Positions 50,728-64,000 of a DNA stretch of 64,000 nt are shown piece after piece (position 1 is the stretch's first letter; each line of letters starts with the position of its first letter). Origin of the DNA: an uncultured delta proteobacterium. GTDB taxonomy: Bacteria; Myxococcota_A; Polyangia; Polyangiales; Polyangiaceae. The stretch spans positions 1,056,001 through 1,120,000 of the forward strand of contig CAWJCS010000003.1 of the NCBI GenBank assembly GCA_963841435.1. The letters run 5' to 3'. The notes beneath the pieces were generated by a model. That model was not told where the DNA came from, ran no database searches, and saw only the letters and a list, made by a program, of their open reading frames with translations. Made by a program: the position numbers and the translations under genes.

Positions 50728-51810
50728 TCAAAAAATCCACTCCGAGGCGAGCCCGAACGACCCCCAGACCCGCCCAAGTTGACGAATTTCCCCGAAGTCT
50801 TCGATGATCAGGCGCGGCCGGGAGGTTTCCAATCCGACCGAAGCCGTGCCGACCAAGGCGAGCCAATCGCGTAGGTAAACGTGCGACACCGCACCGCTGC
50901 CGACCACGACCGAAACCCGTTGCGCCGAGCGGGCAGCGACCGTGGCTCCGACGCCACGAGCAGTAAAGCGATCGAGCCCCAAGCCGACGCACGGCCCGAT
51001 CTCGAGCCACGACGCTTGCCACTGACGACACGCCGAGAGCTCCGCCGTCATACGGCCGACGTGCGCGCCAACATCGGGGACCTCGCGCGACCAAAGGGTT
51101 TCCGCCTTGAAGATTCGACCCAGCGCGACGAAGCGCCAAGCCTCGAAGCGCACGCCGAGACCCGCGCCGAGCCCGAACCCGGCCTTCGGCAGCGGACCCA
51201 CGTTGACCGTTCCGAACGGTGCGCGAAGGATGGCCTGGAGCCTGCCCCCATCGGGTACTTCACGCTTCGTCTTGGTGTCGGCACGCTCGTTCTTGCTCGG
51301 AACGACGTCGGGCGCCGTCGCGGCGCGCGGAGGCTCCTCGGGGGCGACGGTTTCGTCCTTCCCCGGCTCGTTGGCATGCTCCGAGGAGGATGCGGCCTCC
51401 GCTTCCTTCGTTGACGCCCCTTTCCCCGGCTCGCTCCGAAGCAACAAGCCGAGGGCAACGGCAGCAGCCCCTGCGAGGTCCGCGCACGAGTCGGAATCGA
51501 TCACGCGCGTTCGAACGCTGCTCCCGTCGCGCACGGTCAGCGTGAGACGATAGCGATCGTCTTTCTTTACCACCTGCCCCTCGGCATGAAGCTCGCCTGC
51601 GGCCCGCAGCGACTCGCCGGCGAGCGAGCGAATGCGCTCACGCACGGCATCCTGCTGGGGACAGACCGGCGGCGCGTCCCAGGCAAGGTCCAGTGGCCCC
51701 TGGGCCATGACGCGCGCAGGCAGAAGCACCGCCGCGAGCCCCCACGCGACGATGCCGAGCAAGCGCCCGTCGCGGCTGCGTCGGTCAGGGAGCGGCACGG
51801 ATCGAAACAT
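50728..51810 (-). CDS. Secreted / outer-membrane protein with a probable C-terminal beta-barrel
   Basis: Signal peptide, WDAPPVCP...DSCADLA N-domain, Pro/charged linker, amphipathic Gly-rich strands ending in WIF; start uncertain. Confidence 0.65.
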   Translation of the reverse strand: MFRSVPLPDRRSRDGRLLGIVAWGLAAVLLPARVMAQGPLDLAWDAPPVCPQQDAVRERIRSLAGESLRAAGELHAEGQVVKKDDRYRLTLTVRDGSSVRTRVIDSDSCADLAGAAAVALGLLLRSEPGKGASTKEAEAASSSEHANEPGKDETVAPEEPPRAATAPDVVPSKNERADTKTKREVPDGGRLQAILRAPFGTVNVGPLPKAGFGLGAGLGVRFEAWRFVALGRIFKAETLWSREVPDVGAHVGRMTAELSACRQWQASWLEIGPCVGLGLDRFTARGVGATVAARSAQRVSVVVGSGAVSHVYLRDWLALVGTASVGLETSRPRLIIEDFGEIRQLGRVWGSFGLASEWIF

Positions 51811-52567
51811 CGTCCACGTAAACGGTGGTGGCGGGCGGCGTGAGCGCATTCGCCAGGTTCCCGACGTACCAAAGTTCCGGCTCGGGAACGTCCGTGATGA
51901 TCCCCCGTGCTTCGAGCACCAGCTGCCCGTCCTGGTAGAGCGCGACCTCACCGCTCGCGTCCAGCGAGCGCAACCAGTGAAATTCGAGGTGAAACCACGA
52001 GCCGATCGGGATTTCGGGTGCGGTCAGCGACGCGCGGACCATCGAGCGCAAGAAGTCGAACACGTAGAGGGCGAGCCCACCGCCGTCCGTGTTTCCGAGC
52101 GAGACGTCCCAGAGCTTTTGCTGGGGGCTCCGAAAGTGCATGAGGTTCCAGTTGTCCGCGTTCGTCGCCGCCGCAGGCACGTAGTACCAGGCGCCGTAGA
52201 CACCGTCGTCGGGCAGCGCGCCCTCTCGCACGCAACGCGCCTGCAGGCCGTCGAGCTCAACGTCGGAGGTGACCGAGAAGGCGGCCGCGCGTTTCCCGGA
52301 ATGGACGGGCGCGGTGACGATGTCGAAGCCGGCTCCCGGATTGGCGACGCAAAAGCCATTGACGCGGGCGTAGTCACAGAAGCCGCCCTCGAAGCCGGTC
52401 GTCCAGGGAACGGGCACCGGATCGGTGGCTGGTGCCGCGACATCGGCGCCAGCGTCCGGAACGCCCAGGGCGGACCCACAGTTCCACTTTCCGACCGTAA
52501 GGTCCGGGTCGCAGGCCGCCGAGAGGCAGGCGAGCAGCAAGCCCAAGGGGCACCCGATAACCCGCAC
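51785..52567 (-). CDS. Lipoprotein with a jelly-roll (polysaccharide lyase/LamG-like) domain
   Basis: LSAAC signal; WTTGFEGG, PVHSGKRA, YGAWYYVP, WFHLEFHW, GEVALYQDG, VYVDDV. Confidence 0.6.
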   Translation of the reverse strand: MRVIGCPLGLLLACLSAACDPDLTVGKWNCGSALGVPDAGADVAAPATDPVPVPWTTGFEGGFCDYARVNGFCVANPGAGFDIVTAPVHSGKRAAAFSVTSDVELDGLQARCVREGALPDDGVYGAWYYVPAAATNADNWNLMHFRSPQQKLWDVSLGNTDGGGLALYVFDFLRSMVRASLTAPEIPIGSWFHLEFHWLRSLDASGEVALYQDGQLVLEARGIITDVPEPELWYVGNLANALTPPATTVYVDDVSIRAAP

Positions 52568-52856
52568 AGGGGGCGGGCGGACGCCCGGTGGGCGCCGGCG
52601 ATGGCCGGGCGCCAGCCGGGGGTCGAGACTCGCCGACACGCCGCCCGAGTCTCCATGCACGACCTCGCCTTGTCACTCTCCCCAAAATGGCGCAAGCGAA
52701 CAGCAAAAGGCCGCCCGATCCGGGACAGGCTTAACGGAAATGGGAGCGCCAGCCCACTGCTTTTCGCATGGCTCCGTCCGAAAGCACCTCGAGAACGTCC
52801 CGTTTCTCGCCGGGGGGAACACCGCGGCCGCTCCGCGGGCGAGGGCCAGCCCCACG

Positions 52857-53504
52857 ATGAACGCCCCCGCGCTACCGGGCCCACTTGCGCCAGAACATGA
52901 CCCATGGCCGAGCTGCGCTCAATCAAAGGAAAGCCTGTGCGCGCGGTACGCGCCGCGCGTCACGCGCCTGCTGCGCCACGCGCTCGGACGCGATTCCGAG
53001 CACGAGGACCTGCTTCACGAGATCTTGATCGTCGTCTTCACTCGCGTCGATACGGTTCGTGATCCCGGCTGTATGGACAGTTGGGTAAACCAGGTGGCCC
53101 TTACGACCATCCACAGCACGCTGCGCCGCCGCTACACCCGCCCGTTCGCCGCGCCCGACGCCGAGCTCGACCTCCCGGCGCGCCCCGTCGATGGGGACGC
53201 GAGTCTGGTCGCGGCGCACGCGCTCGATGCCATCGGACGCCTGCGGGAGGCGGATCGTCAGCTCCTCGAGCGACGGTGGTTCCGCCCCGGTACCATCGCT
53301 GCTCTCGCCTCGCAGTATGGCTGCTCCGCCATGACATTGCGCCGTCGCTTGCGGCGCGCCGAAGCTCGTTTCGTCCGTCTCGCCGCGCGCGACCCCCTGC
53401 TCCGAGCGCGACTCGAAAGCTCTAAGCTCGTGAGGACCACCGCCCGCACCCCGGCCAAGCTGGAAAGAGCCGGGAACCGCGCCGGCCGAGCGCCCCTGAG
53501 ATAG
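52857..53504 (+). CDS. ECF-like sigma-70 factor
   Basis: RYAPRVTRLL, EDLLHEILIVVF, VRDPG...WV, C-terminal HTH (IAALASQYGCSAMTLRRRLRRAEARF). Confidence 0.75.
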   Translation: MNAPALPGPLAPEHDPWPSCAQSKESLCARYAPRVTRLLRHALGRDSEHEDLLHEILIVVFTRVDTVRDPGCMDSWVNQVALTTIHSTLRRRYTRPFAAPDAELDLPARPVDGDASLVAAHALDAIGRLREADRQLLERRWFRPGTIAALASQYGCSAMTLRRRLRRAEARFVRLAARDPLLRARLESSKLVRTTARTPAKLERAGNRAGRAPLR

Positions 53505-53751: not shown

Positions 53752-54897
53752 ATGAGCCAACCGCGCGTGCTCGTCGTGCTGGGGACCGCCGACGTGTGGT
53801 CCCGCGGAATCCTTCGGGGTTTTACCGCCGTCGCTCGCGAGAGCGGCTGGGGGTTGCTCCACTACCATCCGTCCGCCGACCTCGCCTGGTTGGCGAGGGA
53901 ATGGGACCCGTCGATCGCCGTGCTCGGCCCAGACGCGGCGGGTGTCGTCCCGCACCTGCGCTGTCCGATGATTTCGGTCAACGCGGACCGCGTCCGCGAG
54001 CAAGCAGCCTGCGTTCTGCCCGACGAACAACGGATTGGCGAGCTGGCTCTTCGGCACTTCGTTGCTCGCGGGCTGGAGCACGTGACGACATTTCGCTTCG
54101 ATCAATCAGCGTTCGCCATTGCTCGCGAGCGCGCGTTCGAAGGGTGCGCGAGACAGGCAGGGGCCCAGCTTGCCACCCCCCATCGACCCGGACCTTCGGA
54201 GCCACATTCCACCGAAGACCGAGCCGAGATGGTCAGCTGGCTTCGAGCCTTGCCACGTCCCTGCGGCATCTTCACCTGCTGCGATTCGTGGGGGCGTGTC
54301 GTTGCGCGCTATGCCATGGCGGCCGGCCTGCGCGTCCCCGAGGACATTGCCCTCGTCGGGGCCGACAACGACATCGTCGAATGCGAGCTCATCGCCCCGC
54401 CGCTCTCCAGCGTCGCCATCCCATGGCGCACTCTCGGCGAGGAAGCGGCGAGGCTCGTCGCGCTCGCCCTGGCAGGGACGGACATTGCGGGCAGACGCGT
54501 CATCGTGCCGCCTGTGGACGTGGTGGCGCGCCGCTCGTCGGACGTTCTGGCGATCGACGATCCCGTCGTCGCCGACGCGGTGGCGTGGATTGGCTCGCAC
54601 GCCACGGGGCGCTTGCGGGTGCCGATGGTGGCGCGGGCCGCGGCGTGCAGCCGCCAGCGGCTGGAGCGCGGGTTTCGCGCAGCCCTCGGCCGGACCATTC
54701 GCGAGGAGATCCAGCGCGTCCGCGTCGAATCCGCGAAGACCATCCTCCGCGCCACGACGCTGGATCTGAAGGACGTCGCGAGGCAGACCGGCTTTACGAC
54801 CGCGGCACTGCTGAACGAGGCCTTTCGGCGCGAGCTCGAGATGACGCCCGGCGTCTACCGGCGCCGGATGAGGGCCGCCATCGACGCGGAAGCCTGA
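53752..54897 (+). CDS. xylR: XylR-type regulator (LacI-like sensor plus AraC HTH)
   Basis: RGILRG, LPRPCGIF, VPEDIALVGADND, PPLSSV, RRSSD, LERGFR...VARQTGF...MTPGVYR; AGGAG RBS. Confidence 0.85.
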   Translation: MSQPRVLVVLGTADVWSRGILRGFTAVARESGWGLLHYHPSADLAWLAREWDPSIAVLGPDAAGVVPHLRCPMISVNADRVREQAACVLPDEQRIGELALRHFVARGLEHVTTFRFDQSAFAIARERAFEGCARQAGAQLATPHRPGPSEPHSTEDRAEMVSWLRALPRPCGIFTCCDSWGRVVARYAMAAGLRVPEDIALVGADNDIVECELIAPPLSSVAIPWRTLGEEAARLVALALAGTDIAGRRVIVPPVDVVARRSSDVLAIDDPVVADAVAWIGSHATGRLRVPMVARAAACSRQRLERGFRAALGRTIREEIQRVRVESAKTILRATTLDLKDVARQTGFTTAALLNEAFRRELEMTPGVYRRRMRAAIDAEA

Positions 54898-55368: not shown

Positions 55369-57333
55369 ATGCGACGGTCAAACGTAACGAAAAGCTGGCA
55401 AGCCCGCTGGCTGGCTCGAGGCATCGTCCTCGTCGGTCTGTTGGTCGGTGCCTCGTGCTCCCAGGACCCGGGCCAGCCGTCGTCACCGGCCCCGAGCGGT
55501 CCTGGTAGCTGCATCGCGCCTGCCCAAGCCTGCAACGGCGCCTGCGCCAACCTGTCAGTCGATCCGACGAACTGCGGGACCTGCGGCGTGGCATGCCTCG
55601 CCGGACAGGCCTGTCAGGCGGGACACTGCACGCTGAGCTGCACGGCGCCCGAGCTCGACTGTGGGGGCCTCTGCGCCAACCCCGCGAGCAATGCGCTGCA
55701 CTGCGGCGGCTGCAACCGGCCCTGTGCGTCCGGCCAGATCTGTCAGAGCGGGGCCTGCGTGACCGGGAGCTGCGCGGCGGGGCAGTCCCTGTGCAACGGC
55801 GCCTGCGTCGATACGCTCGTTGACCTTGCGAACTGCGGCGGCTGCGCCGCTGCCTGTGCGGTGGGCCAGAGCTGCCAGGCGGGAATGTGCGTCGCTGCAG
55901 GGTGCCCTTTTGGGCAGTCGCCGTGCAGCGGCGTTTGCACCGACCTGACCACCCCCACGAACTGTGGGGGCTGCGGGGCGACATGTGCCGTCGGTCAAAG
56001 CTGCCAGGCGGGAATGTGCGTCACCGACCAAGGGAGCGCTGGAAGCGCCGGCGCGGGCGCCGGAGGCACTGCAGGAACGGGCGCGGGCGGAAATGCCGGG
56101 ACGAGCACGGGTGGTATTGCCGGAACGAGCCCCGGAGGCGCAGGGGGAACGAGCGGCGGCGCCGGGCAAGGCGGCACCGCGACCGGCGGCAGCGGCAGCG
56201 GCGGAACCGGTCCAGGCGTCAGTGAGTCGTCCAGTTGCCCGAACATCACCTGGCCGACCGCCAATGGCTCGAAGAACCTCGGCGGCGGGATGACCGTGGC
56301 CGCGAATCAGGTCTACGACGGCGGCATGGCGGTCCACGAGGGGTCACTCGAGGACTGCTCCACCGGCAATCAAGACACGGTGGCTCCGCTCATCGACGTC
56401 GCCAATGGCGGCACGGTGCGAAACGTCATCATGGGCAAGAATGTCGGCGACGGCATTCACTGCGAAGGCTCGTGCACGATCGAGAACGTGTGGTTCCCGT
56501 ACGTCTGCGACGACGCGATATCGGTGCTCGGCTCGGGCACGGTGTCGATCAAGAACTCGGGCTTCAAGAACGCTCGCGACAAGACCATCCAGCACAACGG
56601 GACCGCCAGCGTCACCATCGACAACGTGTACGTCGAGACCGCAGGCAAGCTCTACCGCTCCTGTGGCGAGGGCTGCAGCAGCAGCTCGAGCCGCACGGCG
56701 ACCCTCTCGAACATCGTCGCAATCGGAGTCGACCAAATTGCCGGCGCGAGCGAACGCGACACGGTCACCCTCAAGAACATCTGCATGTACCGCAGCTCGG
56801 CGGTCTGCACCGTTTACAAGCCGGGCACGAGCGACGAGTCCACCACGGGCGTCAATAGCTCCGACGAGGGGCCCAATTCGAATTGCAAATTCACGTCTGG
56901 GGACACGCATGCGTTGTTGACTCGCGTCGGCGGCATTCCTTTCACGACGGACGCCGTCTGCGGTGGCCCCAACGCCTACAAGTCGGGCAGCACGGCGACG
57001 AGCTGCGTGTCTGGCTTCGACAAGTGTTTGAAGGCGTGCATGCCGGGCGGCTATGGGTTCAAGGAAATCACCTGCACGAACGGGCGATATGCCGAAGGGA
57101 CCGGCGCGATCTGCGCCATGCCCACCGATCCCACGGCGGCGCAGAACCTCGCTCAGGCGCGAGTCACGTCCGGCGCCTCGGCGATGGTCAACAACAACGA
57201 CGATTGCCCGACGGAGTGGGCGCTCGGCATCGAAACCTCGAACAACGCCAACTACTGCGTCTGCGTGCACAAGCCGGGCTACTACCAACACGACAACTGG
57301 CTCGCTTGGGACTGTCAGCGCAGGTGGTGGTAG
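55369..57333 (+). CDS. PL3 pectate lyase, putative lipoprotein with Cys-rich repeats, a Gly linker and a C-terminal Cys-rich domain
   Basis: AAGGAGG RBS, ATG 55369; GIHCEGSCTIENVW, CDDAIS, DKTIQHNG, GKLYRSCG. Confidence 0.85.
   Translation: MRRSNVTKSWQARWLARGIVLVGLLVGASCSQDPGQPSSPAPSGPGSCIAPAQACNGACANLSVDPTNCGTCGVACLAGQACQAGHCTLSCTAPELDCGGLCANPASNALHCGGCNRPCASGQICQSGACVTGSCAAGQSLCNGACVDTLVDLANCGGCAAACAVGQSCQAGMCVAAGCPFGQSPCSGVCTDLTTPTNCGGCGATCAVGQSCQAGMCVTDQGSAGSAGAGAGGTAGTGAGGNAGTSTGGIAGTSPGGAGGTSGGAGQGGTATGGSGSGGTGPGVSESSSCPNITWPTANGSKNLGGGMTVAANQVYDGGMAVHEGSLEDCSTGNQDTVAPLIDVANGGTVRNVIMGKNVGDGIHCEGSCTIENVWFPYVCDDAISVLGSGTVSIKNSGFKNARDKTIQHNGTASVTIDNVYVETAGKLYRSCGEGCSSSSSRTATLSNIVAIGVDQIAGASERDTVTLKNICMYRSSAVCTVYKPGTSDESTTGVNSSDEGPNSNCKFTSGDTHALLTRVGGIPFTTDAVCGGPNAYKSGSTATSCVSGFDKCLKACMPGGYGFKEITCTNGRYAEGTGAICAMPTDPTAAQNLAQARVTSGASAMVNNNDDCPTEWALGIETSNNANYCVCVHKPGYYQHDNWLAWDCQRRWW
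55510..56022 (+). repeat. Four tandem Cys-rich units (C..G.C.....NCG.C...C..GQ.C..G.C; Stig1/MXAN_6577-like)
   Basis: Repeated NCGxC/HCGGC units; AVGQSCQAGMCV occurs twice. Confidence 0.8.
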
Positions 57334-57336
57334 CGC

Positions 57337-58998
57337 GTGCCGCTCGGAACCAAGCTCAAGACCCTCCGCGCCGCGTTCCTGGTCTCGCTGGCGCTGCCTG
57401 GGGCCTGCACGGACAACGCGCCTTCGCGCGACGTCAACGGCGGCCCTACGAAGGATGCCGGAGCGGGCTCTGGCGGAACCGGTGCAAAGCCCCCGGACGC
57501 CTCGGGGGGGACGGCAGGAACGGCCGGCACGACGGGCGGCGCCTCGGGCGCCAGCGGCTCGGACGCCGGACCGAGCGTCGATGCGTGTCTGCCCGAATGC
57601 AACGACCCGAATGGCTGCGAGCTCACGCCCCTCGAGCAAGCCGAGGTGGACTTCTGCAGGCTCTACGCGAAACGCTGCCCCGACCAGCCGGCGGACGTGC
57701 TGATGGACCCTGGTCCCGGCAAATCCGTCCCTGCGGGCCCCGTCGCACCCTCCACCCTCGCGCGGCCGCAGCTCGGCGAGGCCGAAGCCGACGGCCTTTA
57801 CACGCTCGAGAAGACCTTCGAGGCGGGCGGCATTTACACGGTCAGCTATTCCGGCGGTGGAACGGGCGGCGACGCGGCGGGTGCCGGCGGCGAGGGCGGT
57901 GACGGGACCGGAGCCGGTGGCGAGGGAGGCAGCGGCGTCAGCGAGCCGCTCGGAGAGCGGACCCTGTCATACACCTCCGAGGACGACTGGGATCCAAGAG
58001 GCGACATCGAAGACGTGACGAAGATCGTCCCGGGCCTCGTCGTCGATCCGGACGGCGATCCGGAAATGGACGGCACCTACAAGACGATCCAGTCGGCGAT
58101 CAGCGCTGCCGTCGTGGTCGCGGGGTGCCCGCGGGTCTTCATCAAGGTCATGCCGGGCACGTACCGTGAAAAGATCACGGTGCCCGCGAAGACCTCCTCG
58201 CCGCCCGTCACGCTTTACGGTGTCGACCGCGACCCGAGCCAGATCGTGATCGTCGCCGGCCACTCGGCAGCAGGCGCCGAGGGCGACGGTACACCGCTCA
58301 CCATTCACCAGTCGGCCACGTTCTCGAATTCGCTGCCCCAGGCCTTCCAGGCGAGAAACCTCACGATCGCCAACGACTACGTCGCCGGGACCTGGCCGGG
58401 CGACGCGGAGAGCCAGACCGCCGTTGCCCTTTTGAACCAGGGCGACAGGGCGGCGTTCGACAACGTTCGCATCGTCGGCCATCGCAACACCCTGTACGTC
58501 AAGTCAACGGGAACCAACGAGGTGGCACGCGCCTACTTTCGGAACTGCTACATCGAAGGGGACGAGGACATCATCCTCGGGCGAGGGGCGGCGGTGATCG
58601 ACGGGTGCCGCATCCATTCGCTCGGCGATCGCGTCTCGAGCGGCGCCATCGCGGCGCCGTCAACGCGCGTGGACAACCCACACGGGCTCCTGATCATCAA
58701 CAGTCAATTCACCGCCGACGCGAGCGTCTCGGACGTCTACCTCGGCCACCAGTGGTACGAGGGCGAAACCGAAGAGGCAGTCGGAAAGACGATCGTTCGC
58801 AACTCGATACTCGGCGCGCACATTCGCCTGGGGGACCCCTGGGCGCCGACGCTGCGCCTGACACCCAACAACCCGACGCTGCCCGAGCCCCTCGTCCTCT
58901 ACACGTCGGACGACTACTACGCACCTGGAACCGGTCTGATTCCGCCCGAGATCTTTGTGGCGGAATTCGGCAACTCCGGTCCAGGCGCCGCCCAGTGA
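57337..58998 (+). CDS. CE8 pectinesterase-fold putative lipoprotein, YbhC-like
   Basis: TIQSAI, GTYREKI, SATF, QTAVAL, GHRNTLY, YIEGDEDIILGRG, APST, YLGHQW, AEFGNSGPG. Confidence 0.8.
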   Translation: MPLGTKLKTLRAAFLVSLALPGACTDNAPSRDVNGGPTKDAGAGSGGTGAKPPDASGGTAGTAGTTGGASGASGSDAGPSVDACLPECNDPNGCELTPLEQAEVDFCRLYAKRCPDQPADVLMDPGPGKSVPAGPVAPSTLARPQLGEAEADGLYTLEKTFEAGGIYTVSYSGGGTGGDAAGAGGEGGDGTGAGGEGGSGVSEPLGERTLSYTSEDDWDPRGDIEDVTKIVPGLVVDPDGDPEMDGTYKTIQSAISAAVVVAGCPRVFIKVMPGTYREKITVPAKTSSPPVTLYGVDRDPSQIVIVAGHSAAGAEGDGTPLTIHQSATFSNSLPQAFQARNLTIANDYVAGTWPGDAESQTAVALLNQGDRAAFDNVRIVGHRNTLYVKSTGTNEVARAYFRNCYIEGDEDIILGRGAAVIDGCRIHSLGDRVSSGAIAAPSTRVDNPHGLLIINSQFTADASVSDVYLGHQWYEGETEEAVGKTIVRNSILGAHIRLGDPWAPTLRLTPNNPTLPEPLVLYTSDDYYAPGTGLIPPEIFVAEFGNSGPGAAQ

Positions 58999-59036
58999 AG
59001 CAGATGAAAACCCCGCTAGGAGCTCAGACGAACATC

Positions 59037-60767
59037 ATGAAACGCTCAGCCATGCGATCATCAGGCAAGAACGTGAGCGCTCTGCTCACTTGGCTGTTTC
59101 GAGGCTCGATCCTCGTGGGCATGCCGTGCCTCGTCGGCTGCTCCTCGGGGGAAACACCACCGGCGTCGGACACGCCGAACAACCCGGTCACGTGCACGGC
59201 GCCCGAGGTCGATTGTGGCGGACGCTGCGTCAACCCCGCGAGCAACGCGCTCCACTGCGGCGGATGCAACCAGGCGTGCGGGTCCGGAGAAATCTGCGAA
59301 GGCAGCTCCTGTGTGACCGGCAGCTGCCCGACAGGACAGGACTTGTGCAACGGAGCTTGTGTCGACAAGCAGACGGATCCCGCGAACTGCGGAGCCTGTG
59401 ATGCCCCATGCCCCTCGGGCCAGAGCTGCGACTCCGGCGCCTGCGTCGGCGGCGGCAGCGGCGCGGGTGGGACCGGTGGAGCCGGTGGCAGCGGCGTCGG
59501 GGGGAGCAGCGGAGCCGGCGGCGGTTCCGGAGCCGGTGGCACGGGCGCGTCGAGCGGAACCGGAGGCGACGCGGGAGCCAGCGGCAGCGGTGCCGGCGGG
59601 AGCAGCGGAACCGGCGGTGACGCGGGAGCCAGCGGCACGGGCGCGTCGAGCGGAACCGGAGGCGGCTCAGGAACGGGCGGAACCGCAGGCAGCGCCGGAA
59701 CGGGCGGCAGCGGGGGCGGCACGAGCGGTGACTGCCGCGTCTGGCTCGCTACGGACGGCAACGACAGCAACGACGGGTCCGAGGCTTCGCCGGTCAAGAC
59801 GCTGCTGCATGCCTACGACCTGATGTGTCCGAAACCCCCCGACGGCACCGAGAACGGGGCGGAGTGCCTGGGCGCCGCGCCGAGGACCATCTGCGCGAAG
59901 GCCGGCACGTACCCGGTAACGGAGCGCTTGGAATTCAAGAAGACCCGCATGGGGACGGCGAGCAATCGCCTCATTCTGCAGGGCGATCCGGGCTCCACGG
60001 AGAGGCCGGTGTTCGACTTCCGCACCCAGGAGCGCCTCACTTGCGGGGCCAACCCCGACAACATCGGCGGCCTGACCGTCAATGCAAACTACGTGACGGT
60101 CAAGAACATCGCCGTACGAGGCGCCAACGACAACTGCATTCTGGTGCAAGGCAGCGAGGGTATGATCGAGCACGTCCTGACTTACGAGTGCGCCGACACC
60201 GGAATCCAGATCAGCTCCGGCGGCGAATTCACGGGCAGCGGCACGAACAATACGATCCTCAACTGCGATTCGCACAGCAACTACGACGTGCAGTGCAGCG
60301 GAGAGAACGCCGACGGCTTTGCCATCAAGGAGGGCACGGGAACGGGCAATGCGTTCATCGGTTGCCGCTCCTGGGACAACACCGACGACGGCTACGATCT
60401 CTACGCCTGGACCTCACCGGTGCGCGTCGAGAATTGCTGGGCCTTCGACCAGAGCAAGACCACCCAGGACACTGGCAGCGACGGCAATGGCTTCAAGCTC
60501 GGTGGCGACGGTGTCTCGGCCACTCACCAGCTCAAGGATCTGATCGCGGTCGGCAACAGCCGCGGCACGGGCAACGGCTTCACGGAGAATTCGAATCCGG
60601 CGTCGATGACCTGTACCGGGACCTGCGCTTCCTGGGGCAACAAGGTGGACGTCAACTCTATCGGCGGCGTGAGCACCACCGCGATCGGCAACGCCAACGT
60701 CACCAACATGGCCGCCGACAGCGCTCGCAATGCCGACGGGAGCCTGAAGTCGATCTCGTCGCTCTGA
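59037..60767 (+). CDS. PL9 pectate lyase (PelL-like) lipoprotein with Cys-rich repeats and a Gly linker
   Basis: LVGC lipobox; GNDSNDGS..P, DTGIQIS, NCDSHSNYD, ENADGFAIK, WDNTDDGYD, DGNGFKLGG; start could be 59004 or 59052. Confidence 0.88.
   Translation: MKRSAMRSSGKNVSALLTWLFRGSILVGMPCLVGCSSGETPPASDTPNNPVTCTAPEVDCGGRCVNPASNALHCGGCNQACGSGEICEGSSCVTGSCPTGQDLCNGACVDKQTDPANCGACDAPCPSGQSCDSGACVGGGSGAGGTGGAGGSGVGGSSGAGGGSGAGGTGASSGTGGDAGASGSGAGGSSGTGGDAGASGTGASSGTGGGSGTGGTAGSAGTGGSGGGTSGDCRVWLATDGNDSNDGSEASPVKTLLHAYDLMCPKPPDGTENGAECLGAAPRTICAKAGTYPVTERLEFKKTRMGTASNRLILQGDPGSTERPVFDFRTQERLTCGANPDNIGGLTVNANYVTVKNIAVRGANDNCILVQGSEGMIEHVLTYECADTGIQISSGGEFTGSGTNNTILNCDSHSNYDVQCSGENADGFAIKEGTGTGNAFIGCRSWDNTDDGYDLYAWTSPVRVENCWAFDQSKTTQDTGSDGNGFKLGGDGVSATHQLKDLIAVGNSRGTGNGFTENSNPASMTCTGTCASWGNKVDVNSIGGVSTTAIGNANVTNMAADSARNADGSLKSISSL
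59455..59730 (+). repeat. Gly/Ser/Thr linker with internal DNA duplications
   Basis: GGCACGGGCGCGTCGAGCGGAACCGGAGGC at ~59538 and ~59634; GACGCGGGAGCCAGCGGCA occurs twice. Confidence 0.7.
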
Positions 60768-60799
60768 CGCTCGAAGAGAAACGGCACGAGTCGATCTCG

Positions 60800-61618
60800 A
60801 TGAAAGCAGCGCGCCTCCTTCGCCATTTCATGCTGGTCGCCCTGGGCGTCGGCGCGCCGTCCTGCTTCACGGACAACCCGGCGTCTTATCGGGGCATTTT
60901 AGGGCCCGAGAGGAAGCCGACCGAGGGGCCTTCTTTGCCCTCGGGCGGCGCCGGCACCGGCGGGACCGCGGGCGCCACGGCGGGAGGCCCCGCGGCGGGC
61001 GCCGGCGGAGCATCCGCGGGCAGTGCGGGAACGAGCGAAGCAGGAGAGGCAGGCGCCGGCGAGGGCGGCAACGGCGCGACGGCCGCAACCGGTGGCAAGG
61101 GCGGCAGCAGTGGAGCGAGTGGAACCGGTGTGACGGCCGGAACCGGGGCCACCGAAGAGAATCCTCCCATCGATCCGAACTTCTCCCCGGCTTGCTTCAT
61201 GGGCCCGACCGAAGCCGGCGAGGAGATCAAGAAGGGCACTCCCTGCACCTCCGCGGATCCACCCGTGTGCTACCGCCCGTGCGGGCCCAATCAAACGGGG
61301 TGGAAGGCGGAGACCTGTCTCGCCGGCGTGTATGCCGAAGGTGACTGCACGTTCCCACCCGAGAAGGATTACGGCTGCTATGCGATCCCCAACGTCATCG
61401 ACGAGAGCGCGTGCGGGGTCGATGCTGCCCCCGCCGCGACCGACGAGTGCAACGCGCCGTTGTGCATGACCTGCAACTTCGGCGGCTTCTACCAGGACAG
61501 CGGCTCCAACGCGAAGGAGGGGTATTGCACCTGCAGGGAGCCCGACAAGGAAGGCGTGCGTCGCTGGACGTGCGCCAGCACCACCGCGTGGCCCTGCCCC
61601 TTCAACCAAGGCTGTTGA
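60800..61618 (+). CDS. Non-catalytic Cys-rich putative lipoprotein
   Basis: ATG 60800; signal ending GAPSC, Gly linker, Cys-rich domain resembling the PL3 C-terminus. Confidence 0.75.
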   Translation: MKAARLLRHFMLVALGVGAPSCFTDNPASYRGILGPERKPTEGPSLPSGGAGTGGTAGATAGGPAAGAGGASAGSAGTSEAGEAGAGEGGNGATAATGGKGGSSGASGTGVTAGTGATEENPPIDPNFSPACFMGPTEAGEEIKKGTPCTSADPPVCYRPCGPNQTGWKAETCLAGVYAEGDCTFPPEKDYGCYAIPNVIDESACGVDAAPAATDECNAPLCMTCNFGGFYQDSGSNAKEGYCTCREPDKEGVRRWTCASTTAWPCPFNQGC

Positions 61619-63225
61619 TGTTGCGCTTCCTACTCATTGCCCTCATCGGCACCCTTTCGCTCGTCGGCTGTGGCGGACTGCAAAACGACCCCGCGGGCTA
61701 CGAGTACGTGTGTGACACGAGCCAGGAGGCCGCCTTCGACTACTCGGGCGGGCTGGTTCACTGCGGTGAGGGCGATCCGAATCTGCCGCCCGAGCCAACG
61801 CTCCCCACCGATGTGTGCCGCACGCTCGTGGCGAACAAGTCAACTCCCGACGAGAGCGACCTCGATACGGCCCGCGTGCAGGCTGCGCTCGACGCGTGCA
61901 GGGGCAGGGCCGTCAAGCTGGTCGCGAACGGTGCGAACAACGCCTTCATCACCTCGCACATCGAGATCGACAGCGTCGTCTTGTGGGTCGACGAGGGAGT
62001 CTGGCTCTACGCCTCGCGCAATCCCGACCTCTACCAGGAATCGGGCAACTGCGGAAAGCCTGGGCTCACCGACTCCGGTGCTTGCCTCGACTTCATCCAG
62101 GTGCGCGGCACGAGCCCCGGCATCGTCGGTAGTGGCCACATCGACGGCCAGGGCGGAGAGCCCCTCGTCGGTCAAGACTACTCCTGGTGGCAGCTCTCGG
62201 GGGCGCTAAGAGGCATCAACGGCAGCATCGGCAATCCTCAGCTCATCAACCTCGAGCGCGGCGTCACGGGATTCGTGCTGTACGGCGTCCACCTGCACGA
62301 CGCCGCGAAGTTCCACGTCAAGATCACCGCCGCACCCGAAGACGGCATCTGCGACGTCCCCGGCAAGGGCTACACCATCTGGGGCATCACCATCCTCACG
62401 CCCCGCAAGCTCTACAACAGCCAGGGGATCCTGATGACGCCGCACTTTGCACGCAACACGGACGGAATCGATCCGGGCACGACCAACTCCGCCACGTGCG
62501 GCGTCATCGCCTGCAACACCGTGAGCACGGCCGATGACCAGATCGCCATCAAGGGCGGCCACCTGGTCAAGGATCTGATCATCGCCCACAACCATTTCGG
62601 CACCGGCCACGGCCTGTCGATCGGCAGCGAAACGTACGGCCAGACCATCAACACCGAGGGGGAGGTGGAGCGCGGAATACAGAACGTCTTGGCCTACGAC
62701 ATCACCATCGATGCCGATTCTCGCAGCGTGGGCTACGACGCCACGGACGCGGACTTCAACGGCATTCGCATCAAGAGCGACATCAGCCGCGGCGGGTTGG
62801 TCGAGAACATCGTGTATCGCGACATCTGTATGCGAGACATGAACAACCCCTTGCTGATCAGCACGGCCTACAACCCCCTGTACGCCGGCGATCTGTTCCC
62901 CCAGTTCGGGTCGGTGACGTTCCAGGACGTGCGCCACGTCACGTGCATGAATACCAAACCCCTCGCGGTCAGCATGGAGGGACACAGCACGGTGCGCCGC
63001 GCGGGGCCCATCATCCTCGACAACGTGGTCATCGACAACATCGGCCCCCCGAACGTGTACTCGGAGTACGCCGACATCGTGATCGGGCCCGGTGGCGCCA
63101 ACTTCCGCCCCGCCGGCCCGGACGTGAACGTGACGGACAACAGCAGCGGGACGAGCACTCCCAAGCAGTGCGTCTTTCCGAAGCTGCCCGCCCCCGAGCT
63201 CCCGGAAGGCTGGCTCAGGGAGTGA
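61618..63225 (+). CDS. GH28 polygalacturonase lipoprotein
   Basis: TGATG coupling, LVGC lipobox; NTDG, DD, GHG, RIK catalytic motifs. Confidence 0.92.
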   Translation: MLRFLLIALIGTLSLVGCGGLQNDPAGYEYVCDTSQEAAFDYSGGLVHCGEGDPNLPPEPTLPTDVCRTLVANKSTPDESDLDTARVQAALDACRGRAVKLVANGANNAFITSHIEIDSVVLWVDEGVWLYASRNPDLYQESGNCGKPGLTDSGACLDFIQVRGTSPGIVGSGHIDGQGGEPLVGQDYSWWQLSGALRGINGSIGNPQLINLERGVTGFVLYGVHLHDAAKFHVKITAAPEDGICDVPGKGYTIWGITILTPRKLYNSQGILMTPHFARNTDGIDPGTTNSATCGVIACNTVSTADDQIAIKGGHLVKDLIIAHNHFGTGHGLSIGSETYGQTINTEGEVERGIQNVLAYDITIDADSRSVGYDATDADFNGIRIKSDISRGGLVENIVYRDICMRDMNNPLLISTAYNPLYAGDLFPQFGSVTFQDVRHVTCMNTKPLAVSMEGHSTVRRAGPIILDNVVIDNIGPPNVYSEYADIVIGPGGANFRPAGPDVNVTDNSSGTSTPKQCVFPKLPAPELPEGWLRE

Positions 63226-64000
63226 TGATGACCAAGCGACGGTCCGGAAGAACCCTCGTGCATGGGCCCAGGCGTGCACTCTGCTGGGCGCTCGTGTGCG
63301 CCGCATCGCTCGTTGGCTCCGCCGCTTGCTGGTCGGATCCCGCAGCGCTCGACGGAACCTGCGAGGTCCTCCCCCCCTCGGTCCTCGACTGCCGCGTCGC
63401 GGGTTACGACGATGCGCTCCAGCCGGCCGGCCTCGTGGCGTATGGGTGCACCGGCTCGGCGCGACCGGACCTCGGCGCGACCATCTCGGAGGGAGTCCCG
63501 TCGGGCGTCTTGTGCGCCGACAAGGGCCCCATCGAAGGCTCCGACGAGCAGACGTATTGCTGCACCGAGAACGTCGTCCCCTGCGCCTACAATCCCGCCG
63601 AGGAGTGCGAGCAAGGCACCGTCGGCTACGAGTGCTGGGGCAACAACCGGCCCGAATCGCTGAATCCCGCGATCTCGTGCGGCAACGGCACCAGCGAGCG
63701 CGGTCTCGATCACTACTGCTGCACCGGACGGCCGGAGCCGTCTCCCTGCAAGGAGTCGACCGCGGTCGGCTGCGGGGATCGGTTGCTCGGCTTTCTGTGC
63801 GAGGGTGACGGGCTGCCGCGAGGGGAAGACTGGGGCGCCAACAAGAGCCGGGCGGACACCTTCTATCCGATTTGCAGCATCGCAAGGCCGGCTCCGAACC
63901 CCGCTTTCAACAGCTACTGCTGCTACGTGAGCCTGCCCGTACCGGCCGGCGGGACTTGTGAACGCAGCCCCAACGTACCGGGCTGTGCGCCGGGTCGCTT
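63225..64000 (+). CDS. Cys-rich repeat putative lipoprotein, partial (runs off the window end)
   Basis: Manual translation from TGATG at 63225: signal ending GSAAC; three repeats each ending in YCC. Confidence 0.75.
   Translation, partial: MMTKRRSGRTLVHGPRRALCWALVCAASLVGSAACWSDPAALDGTCEVLPPSVLDCRVAGYDDALQPAGLVAYGCTGSARPDLGATISEGVPSGVLCADKGPIEGSDEQTYCCTENVVPCAYNPAEECEQGTVGYECWGNNRPESLNPAISCGNGTSERGLDHYCCTGRPEPSPCKESTAVGCGDRLLGFLCEGDGLPRGEDWGANKSRADTFYPICSIARPAPNPAFNSYCCYVSLPVPAGGTCERSPNVPGCAPGR

Follow-up and report, generated by a model that had tools for sequence, protein, structure and literature searches.

A probable two-module locus for homogalacturonan harvesting in a Polyangiaceae-type myxobacterium, with a predicted partner protein for its GH28 enzyme

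Fungi, Bacteroidota and soft-rot bacteria are usually held responsible for pectin turnover in soil and peat. Here we describe a pectin locus in a 64,000-nucleotide (nt) stretch of DNA (G000:C3:1056001-1120000; hereafter the window) from the 7.78 Mb genome (69% G+C, six contigs) of an uncultured Polyangiaceae-type myxobacterium. The locus comprises genes for a PL3 pectate lyase (g1), a CE8-like protein (g2), a PL9 pectate lyase (g3), a Cys-rich protein (g4), a GH28 polygalacturonase (g5) and a Cys-repeat protein (g6), with a gene for a porin-type barrel (g7) just beyond the window. We think it probable that this is a two-module locus for homogalacturonan harvesting, in which g4, the GH28 gene, g6 and g7 make up the core and the PL3, PL9 and CE8-like genes an accessory module. 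It would be a case of lipoprotein-based glycan harvesting, a principle already known, that operates without SusCD or a TonB-dependent receptor.

The pectin polysaccharide utilization loci (PULs) of Bacteroidota resemble this locus in that lipoprotein carbohydrate-active enzymes (CAZymes) are clustered, non-catalytic lipoproteins stand beside an enzyme, and a dedicated outer-membrane uptake protein and catabolic genes are nearby (the latter, in our case, in relatives). The differences are the lack of a SusC-type receptor in the window and of a SusD-type match, the diffusion-porin fold for uptake, accessory proteins of no known family, and the host phylum, Myxococcota. None of the 12 TonB-receptor Plug domains of the genome falls within the window, the nearest being some 65 kb upstream, and no SusD-family Pfam match was found among the locus proteins and conserved neighbours scanned, which bears out the remark of a first-pass annotation that neither SusCD nor a TonB-dependent receptor is visible there. 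In Dickeya and Pectobacterium, pectinolysis relies on secreted Pel and Peh enzymes, the lipoprotein PemB, the porins KdgM and KdgN, TogT and ExuT, and KduD and KdgK. These bacteria share with our locus the enzyme families and the logic of an oligogalacturonate porin joined to a cytoplasmic hexuronate pathway; KdgM and TogT take part in their pectinolysis according to the available part of PMC7843439. They differ in that here nearly all the enzymes have lipoprotein signals and the GH28 enzyme has a dedicated predicted partner, and in that the porin, g7, forms a DcaP/OprP-like barrel of 16 strands and 426 residues and has no KdgM match in Pfam, theirs being a small barrel of the KdgM type.

Plant PG1 consists of catalytic PG2 and a non-catalytic beta-subunit of the BURP family (available part of PMC4286026). 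Like the GH28-g6 pair, it joins a GH28 enzyme to a dedicated non-catalytic subunit, but the subunits are unrelated in sequence, g6 being a bacterial lipoprotein with four Cys-rich repeats, and the bacterial pairing is predicted only. Klebsiella pullulanase PulA is a lipoprotein that reaches the cell surface. In Myxococcus xanthus the lipoprotein FibA leaves the periplasm for the surface or matrix (available part of PMC3222651), and hence a surface route is possible in myxobacteria, although the enzymes of our locus are different from PulA and FibA. For M. xanthus an Ala at +7 has been described as a signal for the matrix. The only comparative survey of myxobacterial CAZymes found reports, in the part available, few pectinases and is silent on lipoproteins (PMC12093494). 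The locus points to a distinct conserved pectin-capture architecture in uncultured Polyangiaceae, one that brings two protein families (g4 and g6), a candidate acidic-oligosaccharide porin and a predicted enzyme-partner pair.

The six genes from g1 to g6 share the + strand, and successive genes are 3, 38, 32, -1 and 2 nt apart, the g4 stop codon overlapping the GH28 start. These gap lengths and the Pfam matches given below agree with the first-pass annotation, which had described six closely spaced or coupled genes (PL3, CE8-like, PL9, Cys-rich, GH28 and Cys-repeat), and the family assignments support the pectin (homogalacturonan) theme it proposed. It had taken these six as the whole group. 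The gene content was right, but the g6 reading frame crosses the window end, with its stop at window-equivalent position 64130, and a seventh gene, g7, begins 64 nt 3' of g6 on the same strand. The term operon, also used there, suits the tight same-strand spacing seen here but not the relatives, in which the PL3, CE8 and PL9 genes are optional and often on the opposite strand. Scans for promoters and terminators gave nothing above shuffled controls.

A GH28 scan with one genome per species gave 77 loci, all from metagenome-assembled genomes (MAGs) and nearly all labelled Polyangiaceae, Polyangia, Myxococcales or Myxococcota. As many of these loci are cut by contig ends, the counts are lower bounds. 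The g6 gene directly follows the GH28 gene in 60 of the 77 loci (the aligned parts being a median of 107.5 nt apart), g4 directly precedes it in 57, and 57 loci have both. A g7 gene is found in 51 loci and accompanies the full g4-GH28-g6 triad in 47, whereas any of PL3, CE8 and PL9 occurs in only 10 triad-type loci. Hence, the conserved unit is g4-GH28-g6 rather than a six-gene operon, and the lyases and the esterase are optional add-ons. An independent sample anchored on g6 covered 301 genomes of the same family and 401 genomes across the phylum. There g6 was present in 25 of the 301 family genomes (in 12 of 89 genera, and in 17 of the 200 genomes of high quality) and in 2 of the 401 genomes phylum-wide. 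Of 20 strong g6 places, 19 were downstream of a same-strand GH28 gene scoring above 600 bits, 17 of them within about 120 nt, and the twentieth abuts a contig end; this tally includes an unpublished genome (G656) on which no claim rests. In two genomes, G534 and G580, the complete GH28-g6 pair occurs twice, on separate contigs.

The recurrent neighbours of the triad are genes for an MFS transporter (22 loci), UxaC (18), a PfkB kinase (16), SDR/LarN (11) and GH88 plus DUF4861 (9), and these constitute a hexuronate pathway. In our genome UxaC and a PfkB kinase are encoded at C2:1.108 Mb, away from the locus. The suggestion that transporters and uronate catabolism be sought downstream was thus answered in part: the porin gene g7 is there, but the MFS, UxaC and kinase genes stand near the core only in relatives and are elsewhere in this genome. 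More distant loci (L073, L074, L076 and L080) encode a GH28 protein of about 39% identity with a type-I signal and have no g4, g6 or g7; a PL3 gene with the same C-terminal module as g1 lies about 2 kb upstream of the GH28 gene. One record among these was labelled Acidobacteriota by its submitters.

The GH28 protein (g5, 61618-63225, + strand) matches Pfam PF00295 with E 1.8e-29 (103.3 bits versus a cut-off of 22.9), and its nearest solved structure is the Erwinia endo-polygalacturonase 1bhe (E 1.7e-42). All the catalytic motifs of the family (NTD, DD, GHG and RIK) are present, and their residues N231, D233, D257, D258, H282, G283, R335 and K337 are invariant across 44 GH28 orthologues (alignment A4). 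Its neighbour g6 (63228 to window-equivalent 64130, L001:1228-2130, + strand) consists of four Cys-rich repeats, each ending in YCC. The family alignment of 48 sequences has at least 20 invariant Cys residues and the four YCC motifs, and repeats 1, 2 and 4 are related (hhalign 86-94%, E 2e-7 to 6e-6), repeat 3 only weakly. No Pfam or NCBIfam match was found for g6, and a PDB sequence search gave only noise at E 0.21. The g6 model (predicted local distance difference test, pLDDT, 88; predicted template modelling score, pTM, 0.69) had no Foldseek match that reached E 1e-3, and no score in the ESM Atlas exceeded 0.80. Thus, the fold of this subunit is not recognised in PDB. Small beta-barrel ribosomal proteins were considered as fold relatives and rejected, the best Z of 4.0 in a wide VIA-align search being within noise. 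The family is small, taking in 297 of 1.84 billion representative proteins at E 1e-3, 145 at 1e-10 and 35 at 1e-30. Two to six repeats of the g6 kind are also found in proteins other than full-length g6 (P0151-P0270; G612:C23:53230-53952), which makes for a wider family, though one that is small as well (297 clusters at E 1e-3).

The complex was predicted from GH28 residues 50-535, with an alignment of 44 rows, together with the g4 domain and with g6 as the partner. The GH28-g6 pair gave interface scores (ipSAE) of 0.74, 0.76 and 0.73, and three controls gave 0.01, 0.00 and 0.00; at least 52% of the contacts agreed among the runs and the partner pLDDT was at least 81. The predicted interface comprises GH28 positions 265, 291, 340-342, 366-380, 407-411 and 434-435 (numbered as in the alignment; full-length numbers are 49 higher) and g6 positions 24-35, 105-123, 128 and 167-179 (full-length numbers are 33 higher), the latter including NRPESLNP, the best-conserved non-Cys motif of the family. 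In the 44 triad enzymes the GH28 segment 366-375 has the sequence STAYNPLFAG, with 82-100% conservation, whereas 20 non-triad GH28 proteins in the same loci read NPHYSKT.TG instead. Its Y369, 32 residues C-terminal to the Lys of RIK, does not vary in either the triad or the non-triad group. Since Y369 presumably corresponds to the cleft Tyr of fungal PGII, the interface would flank the catalytic cleft, and g6 is predicted to bind GH28 beside it. Non-catalytic accessory proteins had been proposed for this locus, and the strict synteny of g4 and g6 with GH28, together with the predicted binding of g6, supports that proposal. A search of open-access papers and bioRxiv found no paper on a partner protein of a bacterial GH28 enzyme or on the myxobacterial g4-GH28-g6 triad. 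If the prediction is right, this would be the first bacterial GH28 enzyme that requires a non-catalytic partner, and the pair would offer a new means of modulating GH28 and a handle for enzyme engineering.

The third member of the triad, g4 (60800-61618, + strand), consists of a signal, a Gly-rich tether (47-79 and on) and a 152-residue C-terminal Cys-rich domain. It had no Pfam or NCBIfam match and no usable match in the Atlas search. Blastp without composition correction aligned the g4 domain with the C-terminal module of g1 (25% identity over 160 residues, E 2e-5 to 5e-5), and the domain aligns with the C-terminal modules of g1 and other PL3 lyases with a common Cys spacing (alignment A3). 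When its profile was searched against longer proteins, all but the first three of the 120 matches listed carried PF03211. By these alignments the g4 domain is a recurrent PL3 appendage that also appears as a stand-alone, Gly-tethered putative lipoprotein beside GH28. As it is fused to PL3 lyases, g4 is most likely a pectin-binding or docking module, a role suggested by the fusion pattern. Two tandem g4 copies stand upstream of the GH28 gene in L038, L054 and L057. A paralogue of the g4 domain, 57% identical and with no Pfam match, lies at C3:984997-985431 (L095:6997-7752, - strand), where its neighbours are a GH113 gene, two FecR-domain genes and a short Plug-domain open reading frame (ORF), and not pectin genes.

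In the product of the g7 gene (window-equivalent 64195-65775, L001:2195-3775, + strand), a type-I signal (...GLAQE) is followed by a Pro/Ala/Glu-rich extension of about 100 residues and a barrel with the C-terminal sequence ...GHYFF. A model made from an alignment of 42 orthologues is a 16-strand porin-type beta-barrel (pLDDT 83, pTM 0.82). Its top Foldseek match is DcaP of Acinetobacter baumannii (6eus; E 3.9e-19, TM 0.61/0.74), followed by the 16-strand porins OprP/OprO, OmpF, Omp32 and chitoporin. Within the g7 family Porin_4 was matched by 20 of 42 members (best E 3.6e-9) and DcaP PF19577 weakly by five of 42 (best E 0.0019), g7 itself not being among these five, and no member matched the KdgM family at E up to 1. 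A PDB sequence profile search with g7 found nothing, and the genome contains no paralogue at E 1e-10 and more than 50% coverage. Nine Arg residues are invariant in the family. As far as the available parts of the sources go, DcaP is a trimeric, strongly anion-selective channel of 16 strands (10.1101/306035) that passes carboxylates (10.1101/306035, PMC12338516). The barrel fold and N-terminal periplasmic extension of DcaP are like those of g7, and its anion selectivity would fit acidic oligogalacturonides; g7 is, however, only 17% identical, and its extension is Pro/Ala/Glu-rich rather than a coiled coil as described for DcaP in the portion available. If g7 carries oligogalacturonides, the repertoire of substrate-specific porins would be wider and pectin fragments would have a new outer-membrane route.

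In the accessory module, g1 (55369-57333, + strand) consists of a signal, four Stig1/MXAN_6577-like Cys repeats, a Gly-rich linker (222-283), a PL3 domain (294-485) and a C-terminal Cys-rich module (about 491-654) homologous to g4. The PL3 assignment rests on PF03211 (E 1.5e-50; 172 bits versus a gathering threshold of 25; profile positions 3-197 of 202); Stig1 scored 77 bits, and NCBIfam NF041328 scored 94 bits, under its cut-off. The PL9 lyase g3 (59037-60767, + strand; alternative starts at 59004 and 59052) has LVG-C35, two Stig1-like Cys repeats, a 95-residue Gly-rich linker (138-231) and a PL9 beta-helix (PF22842, E 3.3e-19; 69.5 bits versus a gathering threshold of 25.2). Its NCBIfam matches to PelN and to the exo-lyase PelX (E 6.4e-32) are far under the equivalog cut-offs. 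The long Gly-rich linkers that the first-pass annotation ascribed to four proteins were found, as low-complexity stretches, in g1, g2, g3 and g4.

Between the lyases lies g2 (57337-58998, + strand), in which Gly-rich linkers (55-75 and about 163-206) precede a CE8 beta-helix (PF01095, E 4.6e-26; 91.7 bits versus a gathering threshold of 27). Among NCBIfam models PRK10531, the YbhC type, matches it best, at 221 bits (E 1.6e-65; cut-off 436), and PemB and PemA rank lower. The CE8 catalytic residues are the Gln-Asp of QDTL and the Arg of LGRPW, and in g2 these motifs are degenerate (RNTL and LGHQW). The QDTL equivalents in g2 and its close orthologues (L012-L015, L047) read RNTL, RHSA, RNAL or IASL, and the Arg of LGRPW is replaced by His or Asn in g2 and these orthologues (L013-L015, L047) except that of L012; the canonical motifs are present in three paralogues of the same genome and in the CE8 proteins of L028 and L031. 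As the catalytic motifs are missing, we assigned g2 to the CE8 fold as a YbhC-like protein rather than as a methylesterase, and judging from these residues it is probably not a working pectin methylesterase. Of the CE8-like protein first noted, the fold stands and esterase activity is doubtful. E. coli YbhC, a CE8 outer-membrane lipoprotein, resembles g2 in combining a lipoprotein signal with a CE8 fold, whereas g2 is under the equivalog cut-off, contains Gly-rich linkers and belongs to a pectin locus.

As had been noted from the sequence, each of the six signals has Cys as its last residue, here as [AGS]-Cys behind an uncharged stretch: LVGC in g3 and g5 (the canonical form), VGASC in g1, LPGAC in g2, GAPSC in g4 and GSAAC in g6, the putative +1 residues being C30 (g1), C24 (g2), C35 (g3), C22 (g4), C18 (g5) and C34 (g6); the residues before the Cys are LLVGAS in g1, LALPGA in g2, GVGAPS in g4 and LVGSAA in g6. 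We judged the signals by pattern tests and orthologue conservation with controls, counting orthologues with a complete 5' end. A loose rule asked for [AGS]-Cys preceded by at least eight uncharged residues and by a start codon at a distance of 14-45 codons, with Lys or Arg between; a strict rule was a PROSITE-like lipobox pattern, the textbook form being L-[AST]-[GA]-C. The loose rule matched all six proteins of this locus and, in relatives, 47 of 50 g4, 55 of 56 GH28, 51 of 58 g6, seven of seven CE8, nine of nine PL9 and two of four PL3 orthologues, and the strict rule matched 43, 47, 45, seven, eight and one, respectively. In the other two PL3 orthologues the signal runs to ...LTLGC but a Glu interrupts the hydrophobic region (h-region); by eye all four end in [AGS]-C. 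Taken together, 153 of 164 g4, GH28 and g6 orthologues place Ala, Gly or Ser at -1 and a Cys right behind the h-region. In the control, the porin g7, the loose rule matched one of 49 orthologues and the strict rule none of 49, the sequences having A-x-A sites followed by Gln, Glu or Asp, and distant GH28 paralogues outside the triad (L073-L080) likewise have plain type-I sites without Cys. A conserved [AGS]-Cys closing the h-region in orthologues of all six families supports the lipoprotein-type signals first proposed, and from these patterns we are quite confident that the proteins are lipoproteins. They would be lipidated; the genome encodes signal peptidase II (LspA, PF01252, 114 bits) at C6:1828606-1829100. 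An even Cys count in five of the six proteins once the putative +1 Cys is removed lends weak support.

A Lys at +2 has been proposed as an inner-membrane retention signal of M. xanthus lipoproteins (available part of PMC3222651), and it is seen in none of 47 g4, none of 55 GH28 and two of 51 g6 orthologues, although it is rare in the background also (19 of 1173). In the GH28 orthologues (L012-L069) an acidic patch (NDP, NDD, NEE or SDEP) occupies +5 to +9 after the lipobox Cys. Asp or Glu is present within +2 to +9 in 49 of 55 of them (means of 1.53 acidic and 0.2 basic residues); among genome-wide lipobox matches 67% have Asp or Glu in that segment (means of 1.03 acidic and 0.73 basic residues). 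The patch is reminiscent of the acidic lipoprotein export signal of Bacteroidota.

Given these properties the locus would work as follows. In the core an endo-type GH28 polygalacturonase made as a lipoprotein would carry g6, a four-repeat disulfide-rich lipoprotein, as a non-catalytic subunit on a row of loops beside its cleft, and g4 would be a lipid-anchored, Gly-tethered copy of the PL3 C-terminal Cys-rich module. The accessory module would add lipid-anchored PL3 and PL9 lyases on long Gly-rich tethers and the catalytically degenerate YbhC-like CE8 protein. The lipid-anchored GH28-g6, g4 and lyases would cut homogalacturonan close to the envelope, and the anionic oligogalacturonides would enter the periplasm through g7, an Arg-rich DcaP/OprP-like barrel of the trimeric-porin type. 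An MFS transporter would take up the products and UxaC and a KdgK-type kinase would catabolise them, these genes being beside the core in relatives and elsewhere here. The proteins may face outward, because the GH28 enzyme is closest to an endo-type enzyme (1bhe), the tethers are 60-95 residues long and exported M. xanthus lipoproteins provide a precedent. In its fullest form the locus would be a SusCD-free, TonB-independent counterpart of a PUL, with a heteromeric GH28-g6 enzyme at the surface or on vesicles acting with g4 and feeding an anion-selective, DcaP-like porin dedicated to oligogalacturonides; this we put forward tentatively and regard as somewhat doubtful.

Several points weigh against the two-module harvesting account. 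All relatives are MAGs. Four of the six signals depart from L-[AST]-[GA]-C (Gly at -3 in g1, Ser at -3 in g6, and Pro in g2 and g4), and g2 and g4, with Pro at -3 or -2, fail the PROSITE-like rule. The background of the lipobox test is high, 1173 of 5169 genome-wide ORFs validated by G+C at third codon positions (GC3) matching the loose rule (22.7%) and 858 the strict rule (16.6%); the enrichment over the 22.7% background is still large. The default topology of proteobacterial lipoproteins, CE8 members included, is periplasmic, and the YbhC likeness of g2 speaks for that orientation. On the side of the complex, the mark used in calibrating the prediction tool was reached by 116 of 157 solved complexes and two of 215 mismatched pairs, a calibration that holds only roughly here, where our own alignments and three chains were used. 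The triad-specific conservation of the interface loop may merely reflect closer kinship of the triad GH28 enzymes, and the prediction gave no confident contact for g4, g6-g4 included, which says nothing either way. The g7 sequence itself misses Pfam thresholds (Porin_4, E 0.05), and its substrate is deduced from gene neighbourhood only. Finally, the XylR-type gene upstream of g1 adjoins the triad in none of the 77 related loci.

The default topology leads to another account, in which the lipoproteins, anchored in the inner or the outer membrane, face the periplasm and finish oligogalacturonides that enter through g7 after freely secreted enzymes have cut the polymer. This resembles the periplasmic stage of Dickeya pectinolysis and has precedents in enterobacterial CE8 lipoproteins, namely PemB and YbhC (the latter described as an outer-membrane lipoprotein in the source portion available), to which g2 is similar; the likeness of g3 to the exo-lyase PelX, despite a score far under the cut-off, and the presence of other PL3, PL9 and CE8 paralogues elsewhere in the genome also fit. 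It would not be expected of proteins whose nearest solved GH28 relative is an endo-polygalacturonase and whose PL3 and PL9 members belong to families that are typically extracellular endo-lyases, and tethers of 60-95 Gly-rich residues with stacks of Cys repeats are hard to rationalise in a narrow periplasm. The rarity of Lys at +2 speaks against it too, but only as regards inner-membrane anchoring. We judge periplasmic finishing unlikely.

The same signals could also belong to ordinary secreted enzymes, cut by signal peptidase I, in which the Cys is merely the first of a disulfide-rich mature protein. Four of the six proteins are very rich in Cys (17-53 residues), so that one may well fall near the cleavage site, A-x-A-like sites are possible in g1 (V-G-A|S) and g4 (A-P-S|C), and the lipobox test matches about a fifth of all genome ORFs. 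Yet chance Cys residues do not readily explain a Cys with Ala, Gly or Ser at -1 in nearly all g4, GH28 and g6 orthologues as opposed to a single one of the 49 porins, nor its retention in GH28 and g2, which are not Cys-rich in the signal region, and the distant non-triad GH28 paralogues show what clear type-I sites without Cys look like; free secretion is quite improbable. For g6 itself a different role can be imagined, that of an inhibitor or latency factor capping the GH28 cleft until release, like plant polygalacturonase-inhibiting proteins, which bind over the polygalacturonase cleft. The predicted interface, flanking the conserved cleft Tyr (366-380 in alignment A4) and including loops 407-411 and 434-435, would suit such a cap, but the tight, co-transcription-like spacing and co-inheritance of the two genes fit a subunit at least as well, and we regard inhibition as highly improbable.

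Upstream of the PL3 gene lies a gene (53752-54897, + strand) whose product matches Peripla_BP_3 (E 1.3e-27) and HTH_18 (E 4.4e-18) in Pfam. This architecture, a periplasmic-binding-protein-like sensor with a C-terminal AraC-type helix-turn-helix (HTH), is of the XylR type, as the first-pass annotation had named this gene, and an NCBIfam scan gave no XylR equivalog. The XylR-type protein may regulate the locus. A paralogue, 65% identical (C6:721733-722881), stands beside PL9-like and CE8-like genes in a further pectin-related cluster (C6:721733-728113), and another such cluster, with genes for an MFS transporter, a PL3-like protein and GH88/DUF4861, lies at about 1.45 Mb (C3:1452593-1461510).

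Two soil DNA sequencing runs, with small shares (0.08 and 0.06), and no RNA run were among the matches listed. Just upstream of the XylR-type gene are a gene for an ECF-type sigma factor (Sigma70_r2/r4; 52842-53504, + strand) and, beside it, one for a 290-residue protein (51785-52660, - strand) with a lipobox-like N-terminus and a sub-threshold match to Polysacc_lyase PF14099 (26.3 bits; cut-off 29.9). Downstream of g7 are convergent, unrelated genes. These begin with a pair on the - strand (L001:3800-7053, window-equivalent 65800-69053) encoding a DUF1552 (HXXSHH) protein and a DUF1592/1588/1595/1587/1585 protein with planctomycete-type PSD/PSCyt domains, and an MBOAT acyltransferase gene comes after the pair.

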